Source: an uncultured Acidobacteriota bacterium
Lineage (GTDB): Bacteria; Acidobacteriota; Terriglobia; Acidiferrales; UBA7541
Direction of reading: 5' to 3'
DNA: 64,000 nucleotides
Assembly: GCA_963851235.1 (NCBI GenBank)
Contig: CAWKOM010000007.1
Span: 109,429 to 173,428 of the forward strand
Under the pieces are notes generated by a model, which was not told where the DNA came from, made no database searches, and was given only the letters and a program-made list of their open reading frames with translations. Every line of letters begins with the position of its first letter. Within the stretch, counting starts at the first letter, position 1. The translations under genes and the position numbers were made by a program. Positions 27,423 through 46,913 of this stretch are shown here, in pieces.

Positions 27423-27426
27423 CTTG

Positions 27427-28311: not shown

Positions 28312-28527
28312 GTAATCTCCTCAACCTGCGCTCAACGTTTCTTCTTGAGACTCAGTTCCATCTTGCGCAACGATTTCGTTCGGTTTGCTGTGAATGCGCC
28401 GCATTCCAAGAGACTGGCTTTTCGTCTCCACTAACTCCACGACCAGTAAGCCATTGACTTGCGAATCGCACTTGTCCTTGGCTCGCTCGTAGTTCTTCGC
28501 TCGGATCGGATGAGCTTTCACCCACTT

Positions 28528-30114
28528 TCAACTCAACCTGTGTGTGTAAATCGCCACCGCAATCGAAACCAATGTAAATATCGCTATCACGGCAATTTCG
28601 ATGAGCCAGCGTATTCGCTTGGACTTGCGTCCTCTAACAGTCAGGAGAATCGGGATCCGCACGAGTATCGGCAGTACGGTCTGCTCTCGAATTTCCTTCT
28701 CATTGCGAATCGAGCCATCCTGGAATTCGCGCAAGCCGGCCGCGCATACGCCTAGGCATAGACCCAGCGCCCAACCACCTAACAGAATCAGCGGACGATT
28801 TGGTTTGAAGGGCTTATCGGGCAAGGATGGTGGATCGATGATGCGAAATTGCTCACCCTCCTGGCGCTTCTCAAGGTTGGTCGCCAGCTCCGATTCCAGG
28901 GATTTTTGCAGCAGCGATTGATAGTATTCCCGGGAATTCTGGTAATTCCGCGTCACTTCGGAAAGCTGCTGCTCTCTCACCGGGGTCAGGCTCAGGTGCG
29001 TTTGCAAGTCCGTAATCTGCTTGCGCACTTTTTCCGCCTGTGCTTTGTCATTCGCGATCTCGACATCCACCGCCTTTAGCCGGCTTTCCACTTCAGCAAG
29101 TGCCGGTTGATTGGGCGTATCCGCACCTGCCGTCGTCGGAGTTCCCTCCTTGCCGTTGGTTGTATCCGTCGCTGACTTATGCAGGCTTTCCCATTTCGCG
29201 ATCTCTTCTTTGACGCGCAAGACATCCGGATGTTGCGGCGTATACTTGGCCTCGAGTTCCGCCAGCTGCCTTTTCAGCTCCCCAATCGACCCCTCTGATC
29301 CACCTCCCGCATATGTTTCGCCTCCCTGCGGGGCATCAGCAGATGACTGCTCCATCACTCGATACTCAGAGCGAAGAGACTGCAGGTAAATTTTTTGTTG
29401 CTCGGCTCGGCCTATGGAATCGGTAATCGACTGGAGTTGCACCTGAAGGCTGTTCAGGATCTGCAAATTGCTCTGCTCCTGCTCAGGCAACTCCCCGAGG
29501 TACCGCATCTTGTACTGGCGCAGTTCCTCTTCTTGCTTTTCAAGGTCTTTGTGAGCCTGTTCGAGCTGGCTCTGAAGAAAATTCGTTGTGCTCAAGGATT
29601 CCTGGGCACGCGATTCCAAGCTCTTTTCAATGAACATGGAAGTCAATTCGTTGTTGATTTGCTGAGCTAGCAGCGGATTCTCCGCTGAGAAGGAGATACG
29701 GAATGATGTCGTCTGGTCATCTCTCGCCGCCCCCGGGGCAACCTGTATCGCGATGTCCTGCCTCATCTGGTCGACGAGGTCATCCATTGTTGTGCGGCTT
29801 CGCTTTTTCGAGTACAGATTGAACTGCTTGATCAAGCTCTCCAGTCTTGTCCTGCTCAAAATCTGCTGCGTCATACTTTGCAGCCGGCTGTCGATATCCG
29901 AAACCACGTTCGGCGTGACATACTTCTGCGGTACTTTCTGCTCCTCCACTTGAATCATCGCCTCTGAGCGATAGACTGGCGGCCAAAAGAGCGCAACCGC
30001 AAATGCCAGAATTCCGACTCCAAAAAATGGCCCAAGTAAATACCATCTCCGGCGCACAGCAATATCGCTGTACTTCTTCCAGTCGAACGGTTTCTGGTCG
30101 CTAAGAGATTCCAT
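28528..30114 (-). CDS. Polysaccharide chain-length determinant (Wzz/GumC-like, Wzc periplasmic half)
   Basis: TM near each end, coiled coils, Y.PQHPDV, F.IIDPP.LP..P.KPNR motifs. Confidence 0.9.
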   Translation of the reverse strand: MESLSDQKPFDWKKYSDIAVRRRWYLLGPFFGVGILAFAVALFWPPVYRSEAMIQVEEQKVPQKYVTPNVVSDIDSRLQSMTQQILSRTRLESLIKQFNLYSKKRSRTTMDDLVDQMRQDIAIQVAPGAARDDQTTSFRISFSAENPLLAQQINNELTSMFIEKSLESRAQESLSTTNFLQSQLEQAHKDLEKQEEELRQYKMRYLGELPEQEQSNLQILNSLQVQLQSITDSIGRAEQQKIYLQSLRSEYRVMEQSSADAPQGGETYAGGGSEGSIGELKRQLAELEAKYTPQHPDVLRVKEEIAKWESLHKSATDTTNGKEGTPTTAGADTPNQPALAEVESRLKAVDVEIANDKAQAEKVRKQITDLQTHLSLTPVREQQLSEVTRNYQNSREYYQSLLQKSLESELATNLEKRQEGEQFRIIDPPSLPDKPFKPNRPLILLGGWALGLCLGVCAAGLREFQDGSIRNEKEIREQTVLPILVRIPILLTVRGRKSKRIRWLIEIAVIAIFTLVSIAVAIYTHRLS

Positions 30115-30160
30115 TTCTTCTCACCTTTCAGCTTGTCCCGGCCATCGGCTTCGAATGTTT

Positions 30161-31177
30161 CTAGCGCTCGTCGAGCATTGCGGGCCGCGGCTTCAAAATA
30201 AGTCGGCGCTTCGCCGGCATTCCGCCCTGCTTTATCTTATAAAGCAGAGCGCGATAGCTGATGTTCAAACATTGAGCCGCCAGCTTTCGATTCCATCCAC
30301 TGTTTTCCAGCACCTTGAGAATGAGCCGCCGTTCCACGTCACGGGTCACCTGGCGAGTTAGTTTCTTTAGGCATATCTTCTGCCCGGCTTCGTGCTCAGG
30401 AGTGATGTCCGAACGGATTTTCAGAAGTAACTCGCCAGCCACTATCTGTTCCGAACCCAAAATCACATACCGTCGAACTAGATTCTCCAGTTCGCGGATG
30501 TTGCCCGGCCAGTGATACTTCTGCATGAGCCCCAGGAGTTCCGAGGAAACGGGCCGCGGAGGCACGTCTTTCTTTTCCGAGTGAAGTTTCAAAAAATGAT
30601 CTACAAGGTCTGGAATGTCCAGCGCTCTCTGCCGCAGCGGCGGGAGCCAAATATCAAATGCATTGATCCGGTAAAACAAGTCCTGCCGAAAACGCCCCGC
30701 TTCAACTTCTGCTTCCAAATCGCGATTTGTCGCGGAGATGAATCGGACTCTGGGGGAGTGGTGTTCGGTGTTCCGGCCTTCAACTTCCAATAGCTTCTGC
30801 AGGAATTTCGTTTGTTCGCCGGCATCAAGGTCTGCAATGCCATCAAGAAATAAAGTCCACCCATCCGCACACTCTGGCCGTCGAGCCCCCATTTCTTTTT
30901 CATGCCAAAGGTAGCCACCGGGCACTTCGGAAGTCCCACTCTCGAAGAGGCTCTCAGGAACGGAGGAACAATTGATCTTCACAAATGGCCCCGATTCCGG
31001 AAGCAATCGTGAATATATGGCAAACGCCAACGTTTCCTTGCCCGTCCCGCTCTCCCCCCGAATGCAGACCGGAATGTTCGTATTCCGAAGTCTCTCAACC
31101 TTTTGCTGCACAACGTGCATTCCCGCACTTCTCCCAAAGATCAGAGAGTCTGGTGGAGTGGAGTGTAGATTATTCAT
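30161..31177 (-). CDS. Degenerate sigma54 enhancer-binding protein (AAA+ plus Fis-type HTH; no receiver, no GAFTGA, Walker B DE>DG)
   Basis: GESGTGKE, FVKINC, TLFLDGI, DLFYRIN, WPGNIRELEN, HTH NISYRALLYKIK; the GAFTGA loop is replaced by GTSEVPGGYLWHEKEMG. Confidence 0.85.
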   Translation of the reverse strand: MNNLHSTPPDSLIFGRSAGMHVVQQKVERLRNTNIPVCIRGESGTGKETLAFAIYSRLLPESGPFVKINCSSVPESLFESGTSEVPGGYLWHEKEMGARRPECADGWTLFLDGIADLDAGEQTKFLQKLLEVEGRNTEHHSPRVRFISATNRDLEAEVEAGRFRQDLFYRINAFDIWLPPLRQRALDIPDLVDHFLKLHSEKKDVPPRPVSSELLGLMQKYHWPGNIRELENLVRRYVILGSEQIVAGELLLKIRSDITPEHEAGQKICLKKLTRQVTRDVERRLILKVLENSGWNRKLAAQCLNISYRALLYKIKQGGMPAKRRLILKPRPAMLDER

Positions 31178-31605: not shown

Positions 31606-31705
31606 TTCGTAAGCTAGGTCATTTCTTGCCGGGACCCTGCGATTTCGGTGGTTGCCTCAGGAAGCGGAGTGAACCTTGAACACTTGCGACGAAAAAAGCT
31701 GTGAA

Positions 31706-32545
31706 ATGAAATCATCGGTAGTCTCTGATGATAGGAAAGTTGCTGAGTACTTTGACTCCGCTGCTGCCACTTGGCATAACATGTACACCCGTAAGGACAT
31801 ATGGGGTGAAATCCATCAGGAGCGCTTGGCAAGATTTCTGGCTTTGGCATCTAATCTGCCTTTGCCCAGGGGGAGCGAGGTGTTGGAAGTGGGATGCGGC
31901 GCGGGGCACGCTGCCGTTGCACTCGCTGAGCGTGGCCATATCGTCGAGGCGACTGATGTTTCGCAGAGTATGGTTGACCTTACAATGAACAATGCTGTTG
32001 CTGCTGGTGTTGCGGACAGAATCCACGCTACGGTCGGCGACATCTACAAAATAGACTTCAGTTCAGGCACTTTCAACTTGGTACTTTCGATCGGAGTCAT
32101 ACCCTGGCTCTCGTCCCCGGGCGCCGCCATCGAAGAACTCGCTCGTGTCCTCAAACCTGGCGGCTATCTTCTCTTTACGGCGGACAACCGCTCGCGCTTG
32201 GCGCGCTTAATCGATCCAGCTACTTCTCCACTTTTCAGTGCGATAAAAAAGTTGTTCAAGAAAATCTTCTCGTCGTCGGACCACCTAGCCCCAGAGCCAA
32301 CCGGAATTAAGTCCAATCAACATTCTCTCAAAGAGGTCGACGATTTCCTGGTGCATGCCGGACTAGAGCGCTTGCAATGCAGAACGCTTGGCTTTGGCCC
32401 TTTCACATACTTTTATCGCAAGTTCCTGCCCGACCGTTTGGAAGTAGCCGTTAACCGCTTCTTACAGCGCCTGGTCGATTTAGAAGTGCCCCTCATTCGC
32501 TCAACCGGAGCACAGTTCGTGTTACTCGCCAGGAAACGACCCTAG
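31706..32545 (+). CDS. Class I SAM-dependent methyltransferase
   Basis: VLEVGCGAG motif I, DVSQSM, FNLVLSIGV, LKPGG; ATG 31706 preferred over TTG 31676. Confidence 0.9.
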   Translation: MKSSVVSDDRKVAEYFDSAAATWHNMYTRKDIWGEIHQERLARFLALASNLPLPRGSEVLEVGCGAGHAAVALAERGHIVEATDVSQSMVDLTMNNAVAAGVADRIHATVGDIYKIDFSSGTFNLVLSIGVIPWLSSPGAAIEELARVLKPGGYLLFTADNRSRLARLIDPATSPLFSAIKKLFKKIFSSSDHLAPEPTGIKSNQHSLKEVDDFLVHAGLERLQCRTLGFGPFTYFYRKFLPDRLEVAVNRFLQRLVDLEVPLIRSTGAQFVLLARKRP

Positions 32546-32600: not shown

Positions 32601-33944
32601 ATGACAAACGATCGACATCTTCGGACAGGCGCTTGGCATGGAGACTCACCACTTCATCTCGATTACCCCACAGGATGGAACGTGGTAACTCATTGGCCAA
32701 ACACTCCTCCTCCTCTGACAGACGCAGAAATTTCTTGCTGTTTTGAACGGCCCGTCGGACAGCCTCGTTTGCGCGATCTTTGCAAGGGAAGTTCTCGGCC
32801 GCTCGTCTTAGTAGATGATTTGAACCGGCCTACTCCTGCCGCCAGAATCTTGCCTTTTTTGCTCAGTGAATTTGAAGCTGCAGGAATTCCCTTCTCCAAT
32901 GTCACAATCCTCATTGCCCGCGGCTCGCATGGTGAGCCTCATCCTCAATCTCTCCGGCTTAAAGTCGGGCCTCAAGTGGCGTCAACCTGCCGCGTGTTGT
33001 TGCACGATCCATACCGCAATACCAGAAAAATTGGAAAAACTTCGTTCGGGACACCCGTTCATGTGAACAAGGAAGTCTCTGACGCCGATTTTGTAATGGG
33101 TATCGGCGGAATTTATCCCAACAATACGGCTGGTTTTGGGGGCGGAGCGAAGCTGGCCTTGGGCGTTCTCGATATCCGAGTCATCTCGCAATTGCATCGA
33201 AAACATAACGGCGCGGGTTGGGGAAGGAGCGGGCTGGCAAGTAACTTTCGAAAGGACCTGGATGAGATTGCTCGTATCATCGGTCTGCAATCCTTAGTTA
33301 CTGCACACGTTAATGCTGACCGTGAGCTGATCCGGGTGCGATCTGGCGATTTCAGGCAGTACTACGAGGAAGAAGTCGAATTTGCAAGGCAAGCGTTCCG
33401 CACCCCCAAACCAAATGGAGCGGATGTCGTCATCTCCAACGCCTTCCCGAATGATCTGTCTCTCACCTTCGTGCATATGAAGGGTATCAACCCGCTTCGT
33501 CACGCGCCTCCGGGCGCCTCGCGAATTGTTCTCGGCGCTTGCAGCGAGGGAGAAGGTTTTCATGGGGTCTACCCCATTGTGCGCATGCCGCTCTTTCACG
33601 AACAAAGGGATCGTTTCCGCCGCATTTCTTTGATGACGCCGTCGGAGATTTTGCAAAAAATGGCTGAAAAGTTTAAGCGCAAACTTCACCCTGAGGTCTC
33701 GTCCGATGGGGATAGACAATCTGTTTCTCTCGAGCGATCTCCACTTCCACAGCTCCCACCGAAAAAGCCGATCTGGCTTTATCATACCGGGAACAGTTCC
33801 CAAGCTCTTCCTCCAGAAGTTCGCAGCATGAAAATTCGGTACAACTGGAATGAGATTCTGGATATTGTCCGAAGGGAACAGGATGGCCGCGAAAACCTCA
33901 GCGTTGTCGTGTACCCTTGCGCACCCCTGCAGATTATTGAGTGA
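32601..33944 (+). CDS. Lactate racemase (LarA/DUF2088) family protein, nickel-pincer-type alpha-hydroxy-acid racemase/epimerase homolog
   Basis: L.VDDLNRPTP, ARGSH, PVHVNK.V..AD, AGFGGGAK, GEG motifs match the LarA family. Confidence 0.82.
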   Translation: MTNDRHLRTGAWHGDSPLHLDYPTGWNVVTHWPNTPPPLTDAEISCCFERPVGQPRLRDLCKGSSRPLVLVDDLNRPTPAARILPFLLSEFEAAGIPFSNVTILIARGSHGEPHPQSLRLKVGPQVASTCRVLLHDPYRNTRKIGKTSFGTPVHVNKEVSDADFVMGIGGIYPNNTAGFGGGAKLALGVLDIRVISQLHRKHNGAGWGRSGLASNFRKDLDEIARIIGLQSLVTAHVNADRELIRVRSGDFRQYYEEEVEFARQAFRTPKPNGADVVISNAFPNDLSLTFVHMKGINPLRHAPPGASRIVLGACSEGEGFHGVYPIVRMPLFHEQRDRFRRISLMTPSEILQKMAEKFKRKLHPEVSSDGDRQSVSLERSPLPQLPPKKPIWLYHTGNSSQALPPEVRSMKIRYNWNEILDIVRREQDGRENLSVVVYPCAPLQIIE

Positions 33945-34066
33945 GCCTTTGGTTTAGCGCCGATTTGGGGCGCCCACTCACGGTAATCTGTTTTGCAATT
34001 TTTTGTTGAAAGGCAATCCACCCTTTGGACTGATGTCGGCGAATTTTCTTGGAGACCGGGACCGGT

Positions 34067-35062
34067 ATGAAGCAACAAGCAAAGAGAGCCATCCTAAAGA
34101 GCAGGCTCCTCTCCCTAGCTGGGCGGTGCCTCCCTCAAAGGATCGCCATTCTTAAGTATCACTCCGTCCAGGATGATCTCGGGCGCTACCTCCACTCTCT
34201 CGGGCCAGGTATTGTCCACTCCACTGCCGCATTTCGAGCCCAGATGGAAGTTGTGGCTCAACGATTCAATCCGGTAAGTCTTGATGACGTCAGTATGTTT
34301 CTCAAACAGGGCAAGGGCCTGCCGCCTAGGCCCGTAGCCATCACTTTTGACGACGGTTTTCTCGATAATGCGGAAATTGCAGCCCCTATACTGGATCGCC
34401 TAGGCATCCCTGCTGCCTTCTACATTACCGTAGACCCTGTCGAAACTGGAGGGGTCCCTTGGTTCTGTCGTTTGCGCCACGCCTTTGCCACGACGAGCAA
34501 AAAAAAATGGTTCGATTCCATCGCTAGTTGCGAACGCAACCTGCAGGACCCGGTGGATCGGAAGGCAGCCTTTAGCGTGGCTTCCGAACGCTGTGCACGT
34601 ACGGCGGGAAGTGCACTGCAGCAGTGTGTCCGCACAATTGAGCGGGAACTGGAGGTCGATCAACTCTCGGATAAGCTGATGATGACGTGGGATCACGTTC
34701 GGCTCCTCCATAAATCAGGGCACATTATTGGCTCCCATACGGTCACGCACCCCAACATGGCTCAGGTCGCCACCAGTGACCTCAACCGGGAATGCGTTGA
34801 TTCAAAGGCTGCGCTGGAAGAGAAGTTAAGCGCTCCGGTTACTCATTTTTCTTACCCCTCGCCCATTCTTCAACCTCATTGGAGTGAAGCGACCGTAAGA
34901 GCGACAGCCTCGGCTGGCTACCAAGTGGCCGTCACGAGTACTGCCGGACCCGTCAAGCATGGCAACTGTGTGCTCTCCCTTCAAAGAGTGGTGGTTCCGT
35001 CAGAAGCTGAAGAGCTTGCATGGATTTTGGAAAATTCGATGCTCGGGCGACGTTTCCCTTGA
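34067..35062 (+). CDS. Polysaccharide deacetylase (NodB/CE4)
   Basis: ILKYHSV, AITFDDG, MMTWD, IGSHTVTHP, FSYP motifs. Confidence 0.9.
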   Translation: MKQQAKRAILKSRLLSLAGRCLPQRIAILKYHSVQDDLGRYLHSLGPGIVHSTAAFRAQMEVVAQRFNPVSLDDVSMFLKQGKGLPPRPVAITFDDGFLDNAEIAAPILDRLGIPAAFYITVDPVETGGVPWFCRLRHAFATTSKKKWFDSIASCERNLQDPVDRKAAFSVASERCARTAGSALQQCVRTIERELEVDQLSDKLMMTWDHVRLLHKSGHIIGSHTVTHPNMAQVATSDLNRECVDSKAALEEKLSAPVTHFSYPSPILQPHWSEATVRATASAGYQVAVTSTAGPVKHGNCVLSLQRVVVPSEAEELAWILENSMLGRRFP

Positions 35063-35158
35063 GTCAAATTGCGCGACACAAAGTCGCTCAGGCATTTGTT
35101 GTTTATTTTGTTGAATGGCTCGTCGTACAGCTTCAATCGTTTGATCGAGGTTCGGCTA

Positions 35159-36931
35159 ATGAATGATTCGAAAGCAAGTATTGTTGGGGATCCAATCGAA
35201 GCCAGCCCCAAGCAATATGAGGTAAGTGAGCTGCGCCTGCGATCCGTTTTCTGGGCCTTGGCCGTCTTCGTTGCGGCATTTCTTACTTGGTCAGCACGCT
35301 TTAGCATCACGGTTGACGGTATGTCGTACCTGGACATCGCAGATGCCTATTTCCGCCGTGACTGGGGGATGGCGATAAATGCCTATTGGAGCCCTCTTTA
35401 TTCTTGGGCGCTCGGACTTGGTCTCTGGATCTTGAAGCCATCAACTTATTGGCAGTTTCCCGCGGTCCAATTCGTAAATTTCTTGATTTGCGTTCTAAGT
35501 CTGTGGTGTTTTGACTTCTTTTGGAGTCAGCAAGCCCAGTTTCTTTACGCCGACTCCTCAAAGACAGCCGAGAGTTGCCAAACCACTTTGCCGCTCTGGG
35601 CGTGGTTCTCCCTTGGCTATACGCTTTTCATTTGGTCCATCGCACGTGCCACAATCGTTTCGGCGGTGACCCCTGATTTGTTGGTCTCGGCGATTGTCTT
35701 CCTTGCAAGTGGTCTCATCGTCCGCATCCGCAGAGGTCATAACGGGTTCCTTACCTTTCTTCTCCTGGGACTAGTTCTTGGAGTTGGCTATCTCTGCAAA
35801 TCGGCTATGTTTGTCATCGGTTTCGTCTTTCTCGGGGTGGCTTTTCTAGCCGTGGGGGATGTTAGAAAGTCGGTCGTCAGAACCTGCGCGGCCCTTCTCG
35901 TCTTTCTAATCGTAGCCGCGCCTTTCGTAATCGCCATCTCCCGCAGCAAGCATCGCTTTACCATTGGTGATACGGCCAAAATCAATCTCGCATGGGGCGT
36001 TAATCAGAGCGCTCCCTTTTTTAACTGGCAGGGTGGTGATCCCAGAGCGGGGACTCCTAAACATTCCACTAGAAAATTGCTCTCCGTGCCGGCCGTGTAT
36101 GAATTTGCTTACCCCATCGGGGGGACCTATCCCCCTCACTATGATCCCTCGTATTGGAATGAGGGATTGACCCCTTACTTCAGCCTCAAACAACAGCTTC
36201 GAGCGTTGGTTACCAGCACGTATGCCTTTTACTCTGACTTTGTTGTTCCTCAGTCGGGGCTCCTTACAGGTGTACTTATCGCGCTGTTTATGAGCACAAG
36301 CATTTCTGCGGCTCTCCGGCGTCTCAGTAAAAATTGGCATTTGTGGTTTCCGGCGGTCGCTACAATAGGTATGTACTCATTGGTTACACTGGAGCACCGT
36401 TATGTCGGCCCGTTCGTTATTCTGCTTTGGGCCGCGGCTCTTTCCGCCATCCAGCTTCCTACTTCTCAGTTTTCGAAGAGGCTCCTCACTTGTGTCGCAA
36501 TTTTCGGGATCTTCACGCTTATGCTATCCACCGCCGAGTATTTTGGATCGCGCATCTATGAATGGAGACAGCGCTCGACAAACGGCAATTGGCAGATTGC
36601 TGATGGCCTTCTCCGGATGGGAATTCGGCAAGGACAGAAGGTGGTCTCTCTGGGGACTGCCTACAACGCTTACTGGGCTCGACTGGGCCAGTTAAAGATT
36701 GTTGCGGAAATCCCTTCCAGTGACGTCCTAACCTTTTGGGGAGGCGGCCGGGAACTGCAGTCCACGGTCATCGAAGTCTCACGCAACACAGGTGCTGCCG
36801 CGATCGTGGCGAGTGAGGTTCCTAGAGGTGCTCAGCTTCCAGGATGGCAACCTGTCGGCCAAACTGGTTTCTATGTCTTTCTGCTCCCGCCAGCGGGTCT
36901 TTCAAACTCCCAATCATCTGATTCCCGTTGA
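35159..36931 (+). CDS. Polytopic membrane protein, probable GT-C (ArnT/PMT-like) glycosyltransferase
   Basis: About 12 hydrophobic segments; acidic first loop DGMSYLDIA...NAYWSPLY; TPDLL; GYLCK; periplasmic loop. ATG 35159 has GAGG upstream. Confidence 0.6.
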   Translation: MNDSKASIVGDPIEASPKQYEVSELRLRSVFWALAVFVAAFLTWSARFSITVDGMSYLDIADAYFRRDWGMAINAYWSPLYSWALGLGLWILKPSTYWQFPAVQFVNFLICVLSLWCFDFFWSQQAQFLYADSSKTAESCQTTLPLWAWFSLGYTLFIWSIARATIVSAVTPDLLVSAIVFLASGLIVRIRRGHNGFLTFLLLGLVLGVGYLCKSAMFVIGFVFLGVAFLAVGDVRKSVVRTCAALLVFLIVAAPFVIAISRSKHRFTIGDTAKINLAWGVNQSAPFFNWQGGDPRAGTPKHSTRKLLSVPAVYEFAYPIGGTYPPHYDPSYWNEGLTPYFSLKQQLRALVTSTYAFYSDFVVPQSGLLTGVLIALFMSTSISAALRRLSKNWHLWFPAVATIGMYSLVTLEHRYVGPFVILLWAAALSAIQLPTSQFSKRLLTCVAIFGIFTLMLSTAEYFGSRIYEWRQRSTNGNWQIADGLLRMGIRQGQKVVSLGTAYNAYWARLGQLKIVAEIPSSDVLTFWGGGRELQSTVIEVSRNTGAAAIVASEVPRGAQLPGWQPVGQTGFYVFLLPPAGLSNSQSSDSR

Positions 36932-37170
36932 TTCGCCCTGGGACCCACCAGCACCTGGAGTCAATATTTGCACCGTCTGCTGTCACCTTCCCTTCGTGGC
37001 CCGGGACCATTTATGGCCGTTCCGAGGCCCATGACCGCCTTTCTGCCCCTACCCACCACTTTGAGCCTGAGGAAAGTTCATTCTTGGCGTGTGAATAGCT
37101 TTTCCCATTTCCTCCTGCAAAGCCACTTACCGGGGGACCTCCTCCTCCAGGGATAGCCGCCATATTCCGC

Positions 37171-37196
37171 TAAGTCTTTTATTTTAATACATTTAC
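37171..37196 (+). promoter_or_regulatory. 26-bp AT-rich IHF-like box
   Basis: TAAGTCTTTTATTTTAATACATTTAC; resembles YAANNNNTTGATW. Confidence 0.5.
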
Positions 37197-37251
37197 GAAA
37201 TTCTTGCCATTTGCTCCCCTGACCCTAACCGTAGCCTTTCGAGTCGGTATT

Positions 37252-37266
37252 TGGCATGTCAGGTGC
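37252..37266 (+). promoter_or_regulatory. Candidate sigma54 promoter for comA-comB-ATP-grasp operon
   Basis: TGGCATGTCAGGTGC (GG-N10-GC). Confidence 0.65.
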
Positions 37267-37413
37267 GACTCTGATGCGCTGTAAGCCTCCTGCACCATGG
37301 ATGATTGGGCCCCCTATTCGCCGTTTGAGCGAGGCCGAAAGAGCGCAGGAGAGCTGCTGGAACGCCAACAACCACGTAGCCCCCGCAGTCGGGAGAAAGC
37401 GGACTCAAAAATT

Positions 37414-38259
37414 ATGATAAGCCATAAGATCGACGACCTCGTTGAGCGGACATTAAATGCCCCTGAAGGGAAGGTCCACACCAAAGACTATCTGAAAAAA
37501 ATAGGTGTCCCCGAAATGGCCCCCGCGGTTAGTCCCTTTGATCCCGGCTATGATCCTCTAACTCTGGAGGGACACTTGGAGCAGAGTTTCCACCTAATGT
37601 CCATCCTCAAGATCTCCATGGCGTGCTGGATTATCGCGGATGAGGCTGCAACTCGCCGCAAAATTGCTGCCGCCAAGAAACACAAGGTACCCACGGTCAC
37701 CGGTGGCGGCCCGTTTGAGGTCGCTGTCGCGCAGGGACAGTTGCCGGCGTACCTTGATCTCTGCGCCGATATCGGCGTTACCCGAATCGAGTGCGGAGAA
37801 GGCTTCACGGACATGCCCTTGCAAGCCTCCGATGTCGTCAAAATGGCTCACGAGCGCGGCTTACAAGTCCAGTTCGAACTCGGCAAGAAACACACCGGTG
37901 CTTTTACCGAATCTGTGATCACCGAATTGATCGAACAAGGTCACCGCTGGCTCGACGCCGGGGCCCTGCAATTAGTCGTCGAAGCTCGCGAAAGCGCCCG
38001 CGGCGTTGGACTCTTTGACGACCAGGGAAATTTTAACGCCTCCTACGCTGACCGCTTCGCCAAAACCTTCGGCTTCAAAACCATCATATTCGAGGCCCCC
38101 AATAAACCAAGCCAGTTCGCTCTTCTCGATCACTTCGGCCCTGAAGTCCACCTTTGCAACGTCCGCTTGGAAGAGGTTCTTCGCGTCGAGATTTATCGCC
38201 GGGGCCTCCATTCTGATGCATTTTCTCGGGAAAACTTGCGTCCCCGCCGGATCGCATGA
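37414..38259 (+). CDS. comA: (2R)-phospho-3-sulfolactate synthase
   Basis: LKIS, TGGGPFE, IECGEGF, ELGKK (catalytic Lys motif), VVEARES, IFEAP.K..Q....FGP.V..CNV, EIYRRGLHSD. Alternative start ATG 37297. Confidence 0.9.
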   Translation: MISHKIDDLVERTLNAPEGKVHTKDYLKKIGVPEMAPAVSPFDPGYDPLTLEGHLEQSFHLMSILKISMACWIIADEAATRRKIAAAKKHKVPTVTGGGPFEVAVAQGQLPAYLDLCADIGVTRIECGEGFTDMPLQASDVVKMAHERGLQVQFELGKKHTGAFTESVITELIEQGHRWLDAGALQLVVEARESARGVGLFDDQGNFNASYADRFAKTFGFKTIIFEAPNKPSQFALLDHFGPEVHLCNVRLEEVLRVEIYRRGLHSDAFSRENLRPRRIA

Positions 38260-39083
38260 ACTTTGCTGAACAAGAGGACACTATGAACTCGCCAGTTTCC
38301 AAAACAGTGGTCATCGATTGTTTTCCCGAGAATGCCGGGCGGTATAAGCAGGACGGTTATGCCGTCGTGGCCATAGACGTCATCCGTGCGACGACTACAG
38401 TCAACACCGCCGTCGGTATGGGCCGCCGGTGCTTTCCTGTTGCTACCGTCGATGAAGCTCTCGCCGTGGCTGCCAATCTGGATAATCCCCTGATGGCTGG
38501 CGAGTTGGGCGGCGACATGCCGGACGGCTTTCATATTTCCAACAGCCCTGCTCTGGTTTCTCAACACAACGACATTCACCGCCCCATGGTTCTCCTCTCT
38601 ACATCGGGCACCAAGATTATCGTTGCGGCCAAGGGCAGTGCCGCTTGCTATGTCGCGAGCCTCAGAAACTACACTGCGCAAATCGAACATCTGATTAAGA
38701 ACCATGCCAAGGTTGCCGTCATCGGCGCCGGAACCCGCGGCGAGTTTCGTGAAGAGGATCAATTGTGCTGTGCCTGGATTGCTGACGGACTCGTTCAGGC
38801 AGGCTACAGCCCCGCCGACGAACAGACTGCCAAATTGATAGGACGCTGGCGAAACGCCCCCATTGAGGACATGCTCGTTAGCAACAGCGTCGCCTATCTC
38901 AAGCGAAGCGGCCAGCTCCGTGATTTAGACTTTGTCCTGGCGCATATTGACGATCAAGCTTCCGTATTCGAGCTTCAAGGCAACGAGGTTGTGATGCTTC
39001 CTCCAAACCGTGCTTCGCTCACAGAGCCGCCCGGCTATCTCGAACCGAAGTCCGCGCTCCCCCAGTTGAATGCAAACCTTTGA
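38256..39083 (+). CDS. comB: 2-phosphosulfolactate phosphatase
   Basis: VAIDVIRATTT, GELGG, F..SNSP, LSTSGT, EEDQLCC motifs; ATGA overlap with comA stop. Confidence 0.92.
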   Translation: MNFAEQEDTMNSPVSKTVVIDCFPENAGRYKQDGYAVVAIDVIRATTTVNTAVGMGRRCFPVATVDEALAVAANLDNPLMAGELGGDMPDGFHISNSPALVSQHNDIHRPMVLLSTSGTKIIVAAKGSAACYVASLRNYTAQIEHLIKNHAKVAVIGAGTRGEFREEDQLCCAWIADGLVQAGYSPADEQTAKLIGRWRNAPIEDMLVSNSVAYLKRSGQLRDLDFVLAHIDDQASVFELQGNEVVMLPPNRASLTEPPGYLEPKSALPQLNANL

Positions 39084-40305
39084 TACCTCCCTTCCGGTCG
39101 TTGTTCTCCGGCCGGACCATCATGGCTCGCTCTGTCTGATCCGGACTCTAGGAAGAATCGGCGTTCCCGTCTACGGAGTTGGAAGTCAGCTTCGCTCCGC
39201 CGGTATGGTTTCTCGGTATTGCCGCGACAAATTTATTTTCCCGGACGGCGCATCAAGTGCGCAGGCGCAAGTTGACTTTCTGAAGGAGGTTATGAGAAAG
39301 ATCGGATCGCGCCCGCTGCTTACATGCACGAACGACGTCTCCAGCACGTTTATCGCGGAGAATTCCGCCGTCCTTCGCGAGTCTTTCCTCTTCCCCAACA
39401 TTTCCAGCGACCTCGTCCAGACTCTTACCGACAAGAAACTCATGTATTTCCTCGCGAAAAAGCTTGATATCCCCACGGCAGAAACTTCCTTCCCTCAGTC
39501 TCGTCAGGACGTGTTGAATTTTCTCGAAGGGGACGCCGTGTCTTTCCCGATCATGCTAAAAGGGATTGACGGCGCTGCCCTCGAGCGTCGGGGAAAGCCT
39601 AAGATGGTCATCGTCCGCACTCCCCAGGAACTTCTCCAGCAGTACGACTGGATTGAGGACCCGGCCAATCCAAATCTCATGCTTCAGGAGTACATTCCGG
39701 GCGGCGACAATTCCGTCTGGATGTTTAACGGCTATTTTAACGCAAATTCCGATTGCTTATTCGGCATTGCAGGTCAGAAGCTCCGGCAGCACCCTGTCTA
39801 TACCGGCGCGACATCCTTGGGGATCTGTTTGCGAAACGAGGTGGTCGAGGAAACCACGAAAAGATTAATGAAATCTGTGGGTTATCGCGGCGTGCTGGAT
39901 ATCGGCTATCGGTACGACGAGCGTGACGGAAAGTACAAGGTTCTGGACATCAATCCCAGAGTGGGCGCCACATTCCGTCTCTTTCTCGATCAAAATGGCA
40001 TGGATGCGGTGCGCGCCATGTATCTCGATCTTACTGGCCAAGCAGTCTCCGTTTCTCCGCCTCGCGTGGGCCGCAAGTGGGTCGTCGAGAACGGTGATAT
40101 CATCTCGTTCCACGACTACCATCGCGACGGTAAACTCACCTTCTTTCAGTGGATCCGGTCATTCAAGGGTGTGCAGGAAGCGGCATGGTTTGCCTCAGAC
40201 GACCTGGCTCCTTTCTTACTGATGTTGCGCGGGCTTGCGAGCAGATTCTTGCTCTGGCTGCGAGCCAAGCTCTCTCTCCGAGCGCGCGCCGGCCCGGCTG
40301 CATGA
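39070..40305 (+). CDS. ATP-grasp carboxylate-amine ligase (D-aspartate-ligase-like family)
   Basis: L..IRTLGR.G.PV, L.DK..MY, FPIMLK, MLQEYIPG, KLRQHP, D.RDG.YK.LDINPR; 14-nt overlap with comB. Confidence 0.85.
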   Translation: MQTFDTSLPVVVLRPDHHGSLCLIRTLGRIGVPVYGVGSQLRSAGMVSRYCRDKFIFPDGASSAQAQVDFLKEVMRKIGSRPLLTCTNDVSSTFIAENSAVLRESFLFPNISSDLVQTLTDKKLMYFLAKKLDIPTAETSFPQSRQDVLNFLEGDAVSFPIMLKGIDGAALERRGKPKMVIVRTPQELLQQYDWIEDPANPNLMLQEYIPGGDNSVWMFNGYFNANSDCLFGIAGQKLRQHPVYTGATSLGICLRNEVVEETTKRLMKSVGYRGVLDIGYRYDERDGKYKVLDINPRVGATFRLFLDQNGMDAVRAMYLDLTGQAVSVSPPRVGRKWVVENGDIISFHDYHRDGKLTFFQWIRSFKGVQEAAWFASDDLAPFLLMLRGLASRFLLWLRAKLSLRARAGPAA

Positions 40306-40497
40306 TCCGTGGGGGCGTTCGGTGGCTCCTTTCATGCCAAATTTCATTCTGCTTGGCAGGCAGTGGACTTTGGCGCATTGCTGAGAGTTAGAATTTCAGT
40401 AAATAAGTTCAACAATCTGGGTAGGCTCGCACCGCGGTGTATTCACTCCGCAGACACTTTGACGCGGGTTTATGGCAGAATCATAGAGGTCGCTGTC

Positions 40498-41403
40498 ATG
40501 CATACTTCGCCGGTTTCGGCGCCGTTAAGCACCCACGCTACAGCTGCACCACCTGTCCCCCAATTTGTCACTGGTCTTCTTCAATCGCTTCTTCTGGCCG
40601 CGCTGCTATTCTTTCTTTACTTTGGGATAATCAAAAGCCTCATCGCGCAATGGATCCGGGATCCCAATTATTCTCACGGCTTTCTTATCCCGGTTTTTTG
40701 TGCTTGGGTCATTTGGAAAGAAAGACAAAGAATTTTCAGTGGCGTGAAAAACCCTTCCTGGTTGGGGCTTCCCATCATTCTCGGCTCTGTCGGCATCCTT
40801 CTGCTTGGCGTTTTGGGCGCTGAGAACTTCCTCTCCCGCGTTTCATTGCTCTTCCTTCTCGCCGGAATGATCATCTACTTGTATGGTTGGAAGTTGTTCC
40901 GAACAGTGCTTTTCCCATGGGCTTGCCTGTTTTTGATGATTCCGATTCCCGCTATCATATTTTCTCAGATCGCGCTCCCGCTGCAGTCAGAAGCCGCAAA
41001 GCTCGCCAGCGGTATGCTCTCTCTCGTCGGCGTTCCCGTTCTTAGAGAGGGCAACATAATTCAGCTTCCCTCCATCACTCTGGATGTAGTCGAAGCGTGT
41101 AGCGGCCTTCGCTCTCTCGTTTCTCTGATCACCTTGGCGGTCATTTGCGGCTACCTTTTTGGCTCCCGGCCTCTCAATCGATTGCTGCTCGTTATCGTCG
41201 CCGTCCCTGTCGCAGTGGTGGCCAATGGTTTCCGCATCATGGGCAGCGGCCTTCTAGGTGAATACTGGAGCCCGGATAAAGCCGAGGGTTTCTTCCACCT
41301 GTTTTCCGGACTGTTCGTCTTTCTAGTATCCTTCGCGATGCTGATTGCCGTCCAAGGCGCCCTGACGCTGCTGGACCATCGATTTCGACGGAGTTCTGCC
41401 TGA
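40498..41403 (+). CDS. xrt: Exosortase (XrtA/EpsH family)
   Basis: W..DPNYSHG, EACSGLRSL (Cys), ANGFRI (Arg), FFHLFSG (His); ATG 40498 with GAGG upstream. Confidence 0.93.
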   Translation: MHTSPVSAPLSTHATAAPPVPQFVTGLLQSLLLAALLFFLYFGIIKSLIAQWIRDPNYSHGFLIPVFCAWVIWKERQRIFSGVKNPSWLGLPIILGSVGILLLGVLGAENFLSRVSLLFLLAGMIIYLYGWKLFRTVLFPWACLFLMIPIPAIIFSQIALPLQSEAAKLASGMLSLVGVPVLREGNIIQLPSITLDVVEACSGLRSLVSLITLAVICGYLFGSRPLNRLLLVIVAVPVAVVANGFRIMGSGLLGEYWSPDKAEGFFHLFSGLFVFLVSFAMLIAVQGALTLLDHRFRRSSA

Positions 41404-42053
41404 TGCCTCCGTTCTGTTCTTGGAAGAGGTTCGTTCCTTTGGCCCTGGTTCTTGTAGCTGCGGTGGCTCTCCTGAACGCCAGGAGCCGCGTCGAGATTCT
41501 GCCGCCTCCTGTGGAACTCTCTTCCTTCCCCTTGGTCCTGGGACCCTGGCAGGGCATCGATTTAAACCTATCCCAGGGCGAATTGCAGGTTCTTGGGCCA
41601 GGTCAATTCCTCTTGCGCAACTACCTCAATACGAAGGACCAGTCGGTGGCCAACTTGTTTGTTGCGTACTTCCCTTCTCAGCGTTCTGGCGACACGATTC
41701 ACTCCCCCAAGAATTGCATCCCCGGCTCCGGCTGGGCTCCGCTTTCTTCTACATATTTTCCGATCCGCCGTCCCGACGGATCCACGATGGTCGTGAACCG
41801 CTATATTGTTGCTAAGGGAGGTGATCGCGACCTCGTGTTTTACTGGTATCTGGCCCACAATCGCGTCGCCGCAAATGAATACTATGCAAAAATTCTTCTT
41901 GTGAGGGACGCTATTCACCTAAACCGCACCGATGGTTCTTTGATCCGCGTCGTGGTTCCCATTTCTGGAAGGGACGAAAATGCGGCTCAGTCACGCGGCT
42001 TGGATTTCATTCGACAGCTTCTGCCCGTCTTGGACAGGTTCATTCCGCACTGA
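41403..42053 (+). CDS. epsI: EpsI family exosortase-associated protein
   Basis: FP..LG.W.G, LFVAYF.SQR, HSPKNCIPGSGW, VFYWY, RTDGSLIR; adjacent to exosortase. Confidence 0.9.
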   Translation: MPPFCSWKRFVPLALVLVAAVALLNARSRVEILPPPVELSSFPLVLGPWQGIDLNLSQGELQVLGPGQFLLRNYLNTKDQSVANLFVAYFPSQRSGDTIHSPKNCIPGSGWAPLSSTYFPIRRPDGSTMVVNRYIVAKGGDRDLVFYWYLAHNRVAANEYYAKILLVRDAIHLNRTDGSLIRVVVPISGRDENAAQSRGLDFIRQLLPVLDRFIPH

Positions 42054-42092: not shown

Positions 42093-43082
42093 GTGACCAA
42101 CACTTTGCCGAAAGTTCTGCTAACCGGTGGCGCTGGTTTCATTGGTTCACACCTGGCTGAAGCACTGCTCCGCCGCCATTACCCCTTAGCCATCATCGAC
42201 AATCTCAATGAATTCTACCCTTCTGCTTGGAAGCGTTCGAATCTAGCGGAGGTCCGCCTCGTCAGCGATTTTGATTTCTTTCCCTCCGACATCCGTGATT
42301 TCCCAGAGTTGCTCAAAATTTTCGAAAAGGTACAGCCGTCCATTGTGATTCACTTGGCGGCCCTCGCCGGCGTCCGCCCTTCAATTGAACGCCCTCTCGA
42401 ATATGACCAAGTCAACGTGGCCGGCTCGGCGAATATTCTTGAATTGTGCCGCGAATTCCACGTACAGAAACTCATTTTTGGCTCGTCCAGCTCGGTTTAC
42501 GGCGCCACCAGTGTCGCTCCCTTCTCCGAAAATCACGTGGAATTGCGCCCCATCTCTCCTTACGCTGCAACCAAGCTTAGCAACGAACTTATGTGCTACA
42601 CCTACTCCCACCTCTTTGGCCTCCCCGTGAGTTGCCTGCGCTTCTTCACGGTCTACGGCCCTCGTCAGCGGCCCGATTTAGCTATCTACAAGTTCACTTC
42701 TCTTCTCGAAGCCGGCAAGCCGCTCCCGGTCTTCGGCGATGGCCAGACAGGCCGCGACTATACCTTTGTCGACGACATTGTCTCTGGAATTTTGGGAGCC
42801 GTCTCTTTCGAATCTCCAGCCTCCTCCGCCGCACCCTTTGAAGTGTTCAATCTCGGGAACTCGAGTCCGGTTAAGCTCAACGAATTAATCGAACACCTAG
42901 AACGGGCGACGGGTCGCAAAGCCATCCGCCAACAATTGCCGATGCAGCCGGGGGACGTCCCTCTCACCTGGGCTGACATTTCTAAAGCCAAGCGCATGCT
43001 GGGTTACCACCCTGCAACTAAACTGGACGAGGGGTTGCGCCGCTTTGTCGCCTGGTTTCGATCAGTCAAGTCATCGCGTTGA
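42093..43082 (+). CDS. NAD-dependent NDP-sugar epimerase (UDP-glucuronate 4-epimerase-like SDR)
   Basis: TGGAGFIG, HLAALAGVR.S, SSSSVYG, YAATK, RFFTVYGP..RPD, RDYTFVDD, QPGDV. Confidence 0.92.
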   Translation: MTNTLPKVLLTGGAGFIGSHLAEALLRRHYPLAIIDNLNEFYPSAWKRSNLAEVRLVSDFDFFPSDIRDFPELLKIFEKVQPSIVIHLAALAGVRPSIERPLEYDQVNVAGSANILELCREFHVQKLIFGSSSSVYGATSVAPFSENHVELRPISPYAATKLSNELMCYTYSHLFGLPVSCLRFFTVYGPRQRPDLAIYKFTSLLEAGKPLPVFGDGQTGRDYTFVDDIVSGILGAVSFESPASSAAPFEVFNLGNSSPVKLNELIEHLERATGRKAIRQQLPMQPGDVPLTWADISKAKRMLGYHPATKLDEGLRRFVAWFRSVKSSR

Positions 43083-44619: not shown

Positions 44620-45570
44620 TTAGCGGTCGCCTGCTGAGCGTTCTCCCTGGACCGGTTCTTCATCGCTCGTGGAAACTAAGTAGTCGGTCTTTACGCCAAT
44701 AACAGCGTTGGGATTCAATCGCCCTAAACGTGTGGCAATTGCGTCGCCTAGCATTCCGATCAGCAGTATGAGCAATGCGCTCATTAACGCAAGCTGGGCG
44801 GAAGCCGAAATGTTCGGCTGGTGCCTCAAATCGATTGCCATTTTCGTCAGTCCGGCGATTAAGGCAATCAATACAATCGGGAAGAAAACTCTCAATGGCC
44901 GGAACAACATCACAGTCCGCAGGATCAGAATGAAAAAGCTCCCGGCATCCCACGGCACAATCTTCGATTTGCCTTTGCGCGGCAAGTAATCTATCGTCAG
45001 ATACGAAACCGCGTATTTGTCGCAAAGCATCGCAAGCGTGATCGTAGTTGTCCAACTGAACTGATCCGGAAGAATCGGAAAGTACTGCATCACGATGTCC
45101 CGCCGGAATGCCCGCAGGCCGCTGTTTAAATCGGAAATTTTCGTCCCCGTCATGTAATTTGCAACCAGATTCAACACCATCTTCGCGGGACGCCGGATCA
45201 GTGGAATTTTCACAGTGCTTCCCACTCGCGCTCCCACCACCATGTCGGCGTGCTCCAGCTTAGCCAGCATTTCCGGAATGTATCGCGCTGGATAGGTTCC
45301 ATCCGCATCGGTGATCACGATGTATTCGTGCGTCGCTGCAGCGATGCCTGTCTTCAACGAAGCCCCGTACCCTCGGTTACTCCGATGTCGCAGCACTCGC
45401 GCTCCGGCTGTCGCCGCCCTCTTCGCCGTCTCGTCTTTTGAGCCGTCATCCACCACGATTATTTCCGGCTCAATGCCGTTCTTTCGGATGATCTCTTGCA
45501 ACTCCTTGATGACCGATCCGACCGCGCCCTCTTCATTAAAGGCGGGAATGATCACGCTTACCGTTTTCAC
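44620..45570 (-). CDS. GT2, DPM1-like (polyprenyl-phosphate glycosyltransferase)
   Basis: IIPAFNEE, VVDDGS.D.T, NRGYG, ITDADGTY, D.NSGLRAF, two C-terminal TM helices. Confidence 0.88.
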   Translation of the reverse strand: MKTVSVIIPAFNEEGAVGSVIKELQEIIRKNGIEPEIIVVDDGSKDETAKRAATAGARVLRHRSNRGYGASLKTGIAAATHEYIVITDADGTYPARYIPEMLAKLEHADMVVGARVGSTVKIPLIRRPAKMVLNLVANYMTGTKISDLNSGLRAFRRDIVMQYFPILPDQFSWTTTITLAMLCDKYAVSYLTIDYLPRKGKSKIVPWDAGSFFILILRTVMLFRPLRVFFPIVLIALIAGLTKMAIDLRHQPNISASAQLALMSALLILLIGMLGDAIATRLGRLNPNAVIGVKTDYLVSTSDEEPVQGERSAGDR

Positions 45571-46762: not shown

Positions 46763-46778
46763 TGGCACCCCAAGTGCT
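46763..46778 (+). promoter_or_regulatory. Candidate sigma54 promoter for the Big_2 surface protein
   Basis: TGGCACCCCAAGTGCT (TGGCAC-N5-GTGCT). Confidence 0.7.
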
Positions 46779-46913
46779 CATCTCCGCCATGACCGAGTGC
46801 AATTAGTGCACTGGGATGATGCATTTTTTTGCGTCGACTCGCGAGGCCATCACTCCTGCCATCACTTATGGGGCGAGCCCGCGGCAAGAAAATCTATCTT
46901 TGGAGTCGCTCAA

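Follow-up and report, generated by a model that had tools for sequence, protein, structure and literature searches.

A conserved ComA-ComB-ATP-grasp gene cassette of bacteria and archaea, predicted to decorate surface glycans with sulfolactate

We analysed a stretch of 64,000 nucleotides (hereafter the window) from an uncultured Acidobacteriota bacterium (assembly GCA_963851235.1, contig CAWKOM010000007.1, positions 109,429 to 173,428). In it, a gene for a ComA-family phosphosulfolactate synthase is followed on the plus strand by genes for a ComB-family phosphatase and for an ATP-grasp ligase. ComA is known to convert sulfite and phosphoenolpyruvate into (2R)-phosphosulfolactate, and ComB to take off the phosphate to give (R)-sulfolactate. 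The trio, the two genes that accompany it and the elements upstream of it have the following positions in the window.

31676..32545, plus strand: class I S-adenosylmethionine (SAM) methyltransferase (Methyltransf_11/25), in other genomes the fourth member of the conserved cassette
32601..33944, plus strand: LarA-like protein (Lar_N) of the nickel-pincer-cofactor 2-hydroxyacid racemase family, an optional member of the cassette
37071..37105, plus strand: conserved upstream block, GGAAAGTTCATTCTTGGCGTGTGAATAGCTTTTCC, one of just two well-conserved blocks in the alignment of the ComA upstream region with that of Candidatus (Ca.) Sulfotelmatobacter
37252..37266, plus strand: sigma54-type -24/-12 promoter, TGGCATGTCAGGTGC, read as TGGCAT-N5-GGTGC with GG-N10-GC spacing
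37414..38259, plus strand: ComA, phosphosulfolactate synthase family (PF02679), 281 aa; the longest possible open reading frame (ORF) begins at 37297
38256..39083, plus strand: ComB, 2-phosphosulfolactate phosphatase family (PF04029), 275 aa, with an ATGA overlap with ComA
39070..40305, plus strand: ATP-grasp carboxylate ligase, 411 aa, with a 14-nt overlap with ComB

With the ComA stop at 38259 and the ComB start at 38256, the two genes share the ATGA at 38256-38259 (read gcATGAac), and the ComB stop at 39083 and the ATP-grasp start at 39070 give an overlap of 14 nt. Both overlaps had been reported in a first-pass annotation made from the sequence alone, and on re-reading they were exact. ComA, ComB and the ATP-grasp are a single translationally coupled unit. 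The other sequence-level statements of that annotation were equally borne out, the sole correction being the start of ComA, which is most likely the ATG at 37414, since this start is chosen by the gene callers and the protein-level conservation with the Ca. Sulfotelmatobacter orthologue begins there. The start at 37297 was rejected on the same grounds.

The ComA protein matched the PF02679 profile at E 5e-47 and 160.7 bits (cutoff 25.2) over profile positions 17-243 of 243, and it aligned over its full length with the structure of the Methanocaldococcus jannaschii ComA (1QWG, 118 bits). When the ComAs of the cassettes described below were aligned, 119 columns were at least 95% conserved, and 47 of the 119 are identical in the M. 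jannaschii enzyme; K43, E79, E103, E133-x-G-K-K137, E168-x-R-E-S172, F-E-A-P207, K209 and N227 are common to the two. Against TIGR03849, the NCBIfam equivalog model of the archaeal coenzyme M (CoM) pathway, ComA scored 159.1 bits, below the cutoff of 280, which makes it a member of the family and not the archaeal equivalog. The cassette ComA is unusually conserved and forms a tight group of its own, its best 120 homologues being at least 77% identical. ComB matched the PF04029 profile at E 2e-35 and 122.2 bits (cutoff 26.4) and scored under all of the NCBIfam equivalog cutoffs. Aligned to 1VR0 and 2YYV, it retains the DxxRAT, NSP, NGT and AGTxGxFxxED motifs.

The third protein gave marginal matches to the Pfam ATP-grasp domains over its 411 aa. 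An AlphaFold2 model built on 18 homologues had a predicted local distance difference test (pLDDT) score of 87.6 and a predicted template modelling score (pTM) of 0.86, and Foldseek aligned this model with a probability of 1.0 to biotin carboxylases, PurK and L-amino-acid ligases (RizA, BL00235), at identities of 10-17%. We observed the three-domain fold of the superfamily together with the lysine and the E/D-x-N-x-R Mg-ATP site, and K164, E207, D293, N295 and R297 are invariant among the homologues. ATP-grasp enzymes turn a carboxylate into an acyl phosphate and then hand the acyl group to a nucleophile. The name 'D-aspartate ligase', given to homologues in some sources, is a label only. The subfamily occurs in about 12 Bathyarchaeial genomes with neighbours of the exopolysaccharide (EPS) type, which is not the context expected of an Aslfm-type enzyme (EC 6.3.1.12), whose substrate is a peptidoglycan precursor, and no peptidoglycan-synthesis gene was recognised among the annotated neighbours of the cassettes.

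The ATP-grasp family is large, comprising 646 clusters at 50% identity in an exhaustive HMMER search (E <= 1e-30); apart from the window's own sequence, the best 120 homologues were 51-82% identical. Several members are Rosetta-stone fusions, in which a methyltransferase precedes or follows the ATP-grasp, a FemAB-like GNAT domain is joined to it, or ATP-grasps stand in tandem. Methyltransferase and ATP-grasp are fused in P0124, P0160 and P0095, and further fusions were found in P0121, P0179, P0122, P0198 and P0228. The last of these is a 1589-aa protein with the order GT4-ATPgrasp-ATPgrasp-GT4, where GT4 is a glycosyltransferase (GT) family.

We then scanned GTDB, one genome per species, with a profile of the ATP-grasp. 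This gave 560 relatives, of which the best 80 loci (at least 49% identity) were analysed with flanks of 10 kb. Neighbouring ORFs were clustered de novo and the cluster representatives annotated, with singletons left out. When the window proteins were used in tblastn, both ComA and ComB were found in 72 of the 80 loci, nearly always directly beside the ATP-grasp, and three of the other eight loci are truncated by a contig end at the position in question. The most frequent arrangement has the three genes on one strand in the order ComA, ComB, ATP-grasp, and in a neighbour-joining tree the whole ATP-grasp clade is linked to ComA/ComB with few exceptions. Independent look-ups of precomputed Pfam annotation confirmed the pattern in one metagenome-assembled genome (MAG) of the Bacteroidota and one of the Betaproteobacteria. 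As the three genes overlap and stay together in 72 of 80 genomes from two domains, they most simply belong to a shared pathway, and the earlier claim of one functional unit holds across many phyla.

The carriers belong to at least 10 phyla. The bacterial ones are Acidobacteriota, Ignavibacteria, Bacteroidota, Chlorobiaceae, Beta- and Deltaproteobacteria, Polyangia, Gemmatimonadota, Chloroflexia and Binatia, and the archaeal ones are about a dozen Bathyarchaeia and one Methanomicrobiales MAG. The nearest named relative is Ca. Sulfotelmatobacter (Acidobacteriota; locus L006), whose ATP-grasp is 75% identical. The archaeal cassettes (Bathyarchaeia: L028, L034, L037, L038, L044, L049, L052, L058, L059 and L082; Methanomicrobiales: L047) form a single clade, and their ATP-grasps are nested among bacterial ones of the Ignavibacteria/Bacteroidota type. 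The nesting suggests that the cassette was transferred between the domains.

The cassette is wider than the trio. A homologue of the methyltransferase at 31676-32545 was present in 45 of the 80 loci, usually immediately upstream of ComA, and its NCBIfam and PDB matches were only to generic small-molecule class I methyltransferases. The tight linkage and the fusion to the ligase suggest that it probably acts on the sulfolactyl moiety. The LarA-like protein has homologues in nine of the 80 loci (L006, L013, L018, L019, L039, L041, L057, L060 and L063), and in L018, L019 and L060 its gene lies between the methyltransferase and ComA. In the window the two genes lie 4-5 kb upstream of the trio. The first-pass annotation, which had seen the module as the trio, was thus right as to the three genes and incomplete as to the methyltransferase and, in some genomes, the LarA-like gene.

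The closest solved relative of the LarA-like protein is the malate racemase Mar2 (6D6Z). With lactate racemase and Mar2 it shares the Lar_N domain and the equivalents of His108, Lys184 and His200, which are one catalytic histidine, the cofactor lysine and the nickel-binding histidine. Unlike them, the cassette-linked subfamily has asparagine (Y-P-N) at the equivalent of His174, the second catalytic histidine (E-P/L-H motif), in all 10 members, and the protein at 32601-33944 therefore lacks the histidine pair of LarA racemases. Its scores lie far under all of the NCBIfam LarAH equivalog cutoffs, and no larB, larC or larE was seen in the window. Since sulfolactate is an isostere of malate, it is a reasonable inference that this protein is a candidate sulfolactate racemase or epimerase that sets the configuration at C2, and the subfamily could be a sulfolactate-specific enzyme with an altered mechanism.

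Ahead of ComA, the promoter at 37252-37266 belongs to a pattern (TGGCAY-N6-TGC) with five occurrences in the window, where 0.95 would be expected; in 100 shuffled sequences the count always stayed below five. When we aligned the orthologous intergenic region of the Ca. Sulfotelmatobacter MAG (L006), the -24 (TTTGGCA) and -12 (GGTGCGA) elements were kept, with the spacer and most of the flanks diverged. The sigma54-type promoter noticed at first pass is supported by both the excess and the conservation, and predicted sigma54 control of the cassette has good support at the sequence level. The block at 37071-37105 is a plausible candidate site for a sigma54 enhancer-binding protein. Between the two blocks, the AT-rich stretch at about 37170-37205 that resembles a site for integration host factor (IHF) shows only loose conservation. 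A histidine kinase and sigma54 response regulator pair is encoded in the window. Other sigma54-type -24/-12 matches lie at 46763-46777, 54739-54753, 21833-21847 and 31845-31859; the one at 46763 is 34 nt upstream of a gene for a Big_2-domain protein (46797-48872).

When we examined the neighbours of the cassettes, 53 of 72 cassettes had at least one recognised glycan-assembly gene no further than 10 kb away, and 34 of 72 had at least two; both counts are lower bounds, the probes being cluster representatives only. A recurring order is WbaP, methyltransferase, ComA, ComB, ATP-grasp, Wzx, and the usual setting of the cassette is a Wzx/Wzy-type polysaccharide operon. In Acidobacteriota, it is typically preceded by ExeA, a tyrosine kinase, NusG, UDP-glucose dehydrogenase (UGDH), UXS and WbaP, and followed by a Wzx-like flippase, an APH-like kinase, an FkbM methyltransferase, Wzy, a beta-helix protein, a deacetylase, GT4 and WecG. 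The Bathyarchaeial loci carry an AglJ-like GT2, then further on methyltransferase, ComA, ComB, ATP-grasp, a PIG-L deacetylase, a GFO/IDH oxidoreductase, GT4, GT2 and GT4. The Ignavibacteria and Bacteroidota have an AMP-ligase, methyltransferase, ComA, ComB, ATP-grasp, in some cases a further methyltransferase and ATP-grasp, and then GNAT and GT2. The PIG-L deacetylase is directly downstream of the ATP-grasp in 8-9 Bathyarchaeial loci, and PF01522 deacetylases are found in bacterial loci. A gene-neighbourhood search had been proposed with the first-pass annotation, and its outcome is that the trio co-occurs with polysaccharide loci across genomes; the assignment to glycan biosynthesis agrees with the 53 cassettes that lie among WbaP, Wzx, Wzy and glycosyltransferase genes, and with the GT4 fusion.

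Exosortase and EpsI adjoin the cassette only in the window contigs (L001-L003) and in L006, that is in two of 81 loci. The link of the cassette to glycan assembly is general and that to exosortase is local and incidental. In L004 and L005, TauD and a Lactamase_B-rhodanese protein close to the cassette are possible sources of sulfite.

Within the window, three further genes bear on how a glycan could be modified.

34049..35062, plus strand: polysaccharide deacetylase of the NodB type (PF01522), with no obvious signal peptide on inspection of the N-terminus
35069..36931, plus strand: multi-pass membrane protein, a diverged ArnT/PMT-like GT-C glycosyltransferase (weak PMT_2 match; homologues named ArnT-like)
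44620..45570, minus strand: GT2 of the polyprenol-phosphate sugar synthase type (NCBIfam matches to AglJ, DPM, PpgS and ArnC-like)

The GT2 falls into one cluster (cl15) with the GT2 that stands beside the cassette in Bathyarchaeia, and the deacetylase is a candidate maker of a free sugar amine. The GT-C family has at least 628 homologues, and among the 120 matches listed most have no precomputed Pfam assignment. In other phyla (L086, L087) GT-C homologues adjoin a UDP-glucose dehydrogenase, an epimerase and a GT2, an Arn-like setting without ComA/ComB.

The simplest reading of these data is that sulfolactate is the acyl donor of the ATP-grasp, since it has a single carboxylate and no amine, and its two genes are linked near-obligately to the ligase. 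We estimate a probability of about 55% that the cassette installs a sulfolactate-derived acyl group on a surface glycan, the ATP-grasp joining it to a glycan building block. ComA and ComB would carry out their two known reactions, from sulfite and phosphoenolpyruvate to (2R)-phosphosulfolactate and on to (R)-sulfolactate. Beyond this point we infer what the ATP-grasp acts on, which acceptor it uses and what the methyltransferase and the LarA-like enzyme do. The LarA-like enzyme, if present, may alter the C2 configuration, and the methyltransferase may act on either the free acid or its conjugate, perhaps at the 2-OH. The ATP-grasp, presumed cytoplasmic, would turn the one carboxylate that sulfolactate has into an acyl phosphate, from which the acyl group would go to a nucleophile of a glycan building block ahead of export. 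A lipid-linked sugar or repeat unit is suggested as the acceptor by the place of the cassette in the operons, after WbaP and ahead of the flippase, by the fusion with GT4 and by deacetylases that are cytoplasmic. The likeliest nucleophile would be a free amine, carried by a de-N-acetylated sugar or an amino sugar that is attached to a polyprenyl-phosphate carrier or belongs to a repeat unit.

In the window, transcription would start from the sigma54 promoter and the pathway may follow a route like that of the Arn system (ArnC, ArnD, ArnT) and of mycobacterial PpgS with its GT-C enzyme, which places galactosamine on arabinogalactan. The window likewise has a PpgS/ArnC/AglJ-like GT2, a PF01522 deacetylase and an ArnT-like GT-C, and in Bathyarchaeia an AglJ-like GT2 and a PIG-L deacetylase occur in the loci, the deacetylase next to the ATP-grasp. 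The GT2 would make a polyprenyl-phosphate-linked N-acetylhexosamine, the deacetylase would free its amine, the ATP-grasp would add sulfolactate, and the GT-C protein would transfer the modified sugar outside the membrane. Because these three enzymes surround the cassette, the decorated sugar may be delivered as a polyprenyl-phosphate-linked side-branch. Arn and PpgS deliver a free amino sugar, whereas here an acylation with sulfolactate is predicted in addition. The arrangement is local: the GT2 (GT2a) is near 10 cassettes, and GT-C homologues elsewhere occur without ComA/ComB.

Several observations weigh against a role of the cassette in glycan decoration. We recognised no glycan gene within 10 kb of 19 of the 72 cassettes, some of which are on short contigs. 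The amide link to a deacetylated amino sugar that was proposed at first pass stays tentative; just 24 of the 72 have a deacetylase in their vicinity (PF01522-like or PIG-L, most of them lacking a signal peptide). The betaproteobacterial cassettes (L005/L020:9161-15481 and L031) lie outside any polysaccharide locus with no glycosyltransferases nearby, in the order ComA, ATP-grasp, D-Ala-D-Ala-ligase-like ATP-grasp, ComB, PGA_cap (CapA-like), lactonase. TauD and a Lactamase_B-rhodanese protein are encoded close to them, and this variant may make a different sulfolactate conjugate. In L085 (3418-7835), an EPS locus syntenic with the two-ATP-grasp loci L071, L075 and L083, both ATP-grasps are kept and an ornithine-cyclodeaminase/mu-crystallin enzyme with a different methyltransferase stands in place of ComA/ComB. 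The substrate-supply module seems to have been exchanged here, which would fit a logic of supply plus ligase; the locus also shows that the ligases are not absolutely tied to sulfolactate. ComA and ComB miss the NCBIfam equivalog cutoffs, and their substrate specificity is assumed from family membership and motif conservation. The ATP-grasp has no solved or characterised close relative in our searches (weak biotin-carboxylase matches by sequence, generic folds by Foldseek), and neither structure search pointed to a substrate. The neighbour analysis itself is built from greedy longest-ORF calling, tblastn and cluster representatives, on the best 80 of 560 loci.

Some of these observations would be expected if the ATP-grasp joined sulfolactate to an acceptor other than a glycan, such as an amino acid, a polyamine, a peptide or a lipid head group. 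The product would then be a soluble or membrane sulfonated metabolite (an osmolyte, signal or storage compound), and the glycan context would reflect co-regulation or a shared function in the envelope. The cassettes without glycan genes and the betaproteobacterial pairing with a D-Ala-D-Ala-ligase-like ATP-grasp, PGA_cap and a lactonase in place of glycosyltransferases agree with this, as do the cyanophycin-synthetase-like ATP-grasp added in some loci and the L-amino-acid ligases among the structurally nearest solved enzymes. Yet most cassettes sit within Wzx/Wzy-type operons, flanked by priming transferase and flippase, the ATP-grasp of P0228 is fused to GT4, and the only consistently linked exporters are Wzx-like flippases; on balance we consider a non-glycan acceptor unlikely, at about one chance in five by our own reckoning. 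It is less likely still that the carboxylate activated by the ATP-grasp belongs to the glycan, such as that of a uronic acid made by UGDH, and receives an amine or amino acid from the enzyme, with sulfolactate attached by another enzyme or acting as nucleophile through its hydroxyl. ATP-grasp amidation of glucuronate is established for the Campylobacter jejuni capsule and gives this a precedent; UGDH is near 12 cassette loci, and the two ATP-grasp paralogues or ATP-grasp-GNAT (FemAB-like) fusions of several loci suggest more than one ligation step. Against it, sulfolactate has no amine, and neither an aminotransferase nor ComC for its conversion to cysteate is linked (no aminotransferase among the annotated recurrent neighbour clusters, singleton neighbours not being annotated). 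The near-obligate adjacency and overlap also fit best with an ATP-grasp that uses the product of ComB, in which the only group reactive towards such an enzyme is the carboxylate.

The remaining readings separate the ligase from sulfolactate or the trio from glycans altogether. Free sulfolactate accumulates in Bacillus subtilis through the ComA/ComB homologues YitD/YitC, and Ca. Sulfotelmatobacter, the nearest named relative, has been described with a dissimilatory sulfur metabolism that involves sulfite. ComA and ComB could on this precedent make free sulfolactate or serve as a sulfite sink, with the ATP-grasp doing an unrelated job in the EPS; overlapping genes that are kept together in 72 of 80 genomes and two domains make this quite improbable. 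As archaeal CoM synthesis begins with ComA and ComB, and the cassette is found in Bathyarchaeia and a Methanomicrobiales MAG, the trio could also represent the opening steps of that pathway. This is largely refuted, and we regard it as the most remote of the readings. The first-pass annotation had seen no ComC or ComDE, and indeed no Ldh_2 or TPP-type (thiamine pyrophosphate) match was found among the scanned window ORFs of at least 180 aa, nor ComC or ComDE among the recurrent neighbour clusters. The carriers are mostly bacteria, non-methanogens without known use of CoM, the ComA score of 159 stands against the archaeal equivalog cutoff of 280, and the ATP-grasp and methyltransferase would be left without a role.

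Returning to sulfolactate as a glycan decoration, the closest known systems share parts of it. The first two CoM steps (M. jannaschii ComA/ComB) and B. subtilis YitD/YitC use the same two families, whose motifs are kept in the window proteins, with the same expected chemistry, whereas the window genes are coupled to an ATP-grasp and a methyltransferase in glycan loci lacking ComC/ComDE. Glycan and cell-wall ATP-grasp amidoligases include the C. jejuni capsule glucuronamide ligase (the C-terminal domain of Cj1438) and the Enterococcus faecium D-aspartate ligase Aslfm. Like these, the ATP-grasp lies in a surface-polymer locus and would probably couple a small acid to an amine as an amide, by way of an acyl phosphate. 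In contrast to them, the predicted acid is a sulfonate and not an amino or uronic acid, and the matches to solved structures are generic. The family is also found in archaea, which are not known to have peptidoglycan.

The enzyme families are known, and their combination, context and predicted product appear to be new. The proposed decoration would be a non-carbohydrate one, with an ATP-grasp amidoligase that attaches it and a known sulfonate synthesis of two steps that supplies the acid. As had been supposed at first pass, no sulfolactyl-glycan pathway appears to have been described: the full-text literature searched, with most subscription journals outside its coverage, was silent on ComA, ComB or sulfolactate together with ATP-grasp, polysaccharide or glycan, and 'sulfolactyl' and its spelling variants had no use in it. 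We regard the undescribed status of this decoration as provisional. Extending the reading to all carriers, it is possible, although we would stop just short of calling it probable, that many soil, wetland, groundwater and sediment bacteria and Bathyarchaeia carry N-(3-sulfolactyl) glycans, possibly 2-O-methylated or epimerised at C2, made by a mobile four-gene cassette and attached by the ATP-grasp. If so, this would be a new class of glycan modification, a new role for ComA/ComB and an unrecognised route from sulfite to organosulfonates, to which about a tenth of the cassettes would add a LarA-type sulfolactate racemase or epimerase.

Outside methanogens, we know of no convincing role for ComA and ComB besides the sulfolactate of Bacillus spores. 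The cassette offers bacterial ComA/ComB such a role and would explain their scatter over phyla that do not use CoM, and where ComA/ComB belong to the cassette, their annotation as CoM genes in Bathyarchaeial and other MAGs may be mistaken. A large uncharacterised ATP-grasp subfamily also gains a testable substrate. If the prediction is correct, a sulfonate with a permanent charge and resistance to hydrolysis would change the metal binding of extracellular polymers, their hydration and their recognition by phages or predators. It would also affect the colorimetric assays by which 'sulfated' polymers are reported from biofilms and granular sludge. It would further tie the sulfite metabolism of sulfur-cycling Acidobacteriota to the organosulfonate pool of peat and soil.

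The window as a whole is a large exosortase-type EPS locus, and further features of it are as follows.

21389-24706, minus strand: GT4, GT2, polysaccharide deacetylase and DUF3473 in one ORF of 1105 aa, the deacetylase being C-terminal
30161-31177, 49270-50361 and 51782-53242: sigma54 activators
40309-41403, plus strand: exosortase (PF09721), with an alternative start ATG at 40498 and a score of 206.2 against the XrtA model (cutoff 208)
41403-42053, plus strand: EpsI (PF11984)
42093-43082, plus strand: NAD-dependent sugar epimerase/dehydratase (PF01370)

On the minus strand, 13154-31177 encodes GT2 and GT4 glycosyltransferases, a Wzx-like flippase, a Wzy-like polymerase, a WbaP-like priming transferase, a tyrosine-kinase-like ATPase, Wzz and a sigma54 activator, together with two PaaK/F390-synthetase-like ligases and the 1105-aa GT4-GT2-deacetylase-DUF3473 fusion. 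The plus strand begins at 31676 with the SAM methyltransferase, the LarA-like protein, the PF01522 deacetylase and the ArnT-like GT-C, followed by the promoter gap and ComA; exosortase, EpsI and the epimerase follow the ATP-grasp on the same strand, as noted at first pass. The two polysaccharide deacetylases that had been reported are real, one at 34049-35062 and the other the C-terminal part of 21389-24706. Further minus-strand genes downstream encode an FAD oxidoreductase and an ICMT/PEMT-like methyltransferase.

With the sigma54-regulated EPS loci of the PEP-CTERM/exosortase (XrtA-EpsI) type, the window shares exosortase, EpsI, Wzz, the tyrosine-kinase-like ATPase, the WbaP-like transferase, the DUF3473 deacetylase fusion, the PaaK-like ligases, the histidine kinase with its sigma54 regulator and the sigma54-type promoters. 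It differs from them in the sulfolactate cassette, which is no regular part of such loci (2/81), and in that a regular-expression scan of the window found no PEP-CTERM tail. Exosortase-sorted proteins, which the first-pass annotation had offered as an alternative acceptor, are unlikely given the rarity of exosortase beside the cassette and the missing tail, and they were dropped.

Other observations in the window concern single genes. The domains fused in ORF 21389-24706 are usually separate genes in XrtA-type loci. The two PaaK/F390-synthetase-like AMP-dependent ligases are adjacent within the EPS operon (17110-18780 and 18494-19951, minus strand), with 'DVU_1553 family' as the best NCBIfam match; the longest ORFs of the two share about 290 nt, and one of the start codons is therefore probably located further downstream. 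At 82-3099 and 3267-7007 (minus strand) there are two very large paralogous secreted proteins of ASH/DUF1573/HYDIN-like Ig repeats, whose last 50 residues are near-identical, differing at the final three positions, with no PEP-CTERM tail; the GC content around these genes is raised (0.63-0.64 against about 0.54). The ORF at 60002-61591 (529 aa) has two Thy1 (ThyX) stretches and is about twice the usual length of ThyX. Finally, a look for transcripts found the sequence in soil and wetland metagenome runs labelled as probable DNA ('DNA?'), together with seven short, low-depth and uninformative fragments in a single run of unknown type.

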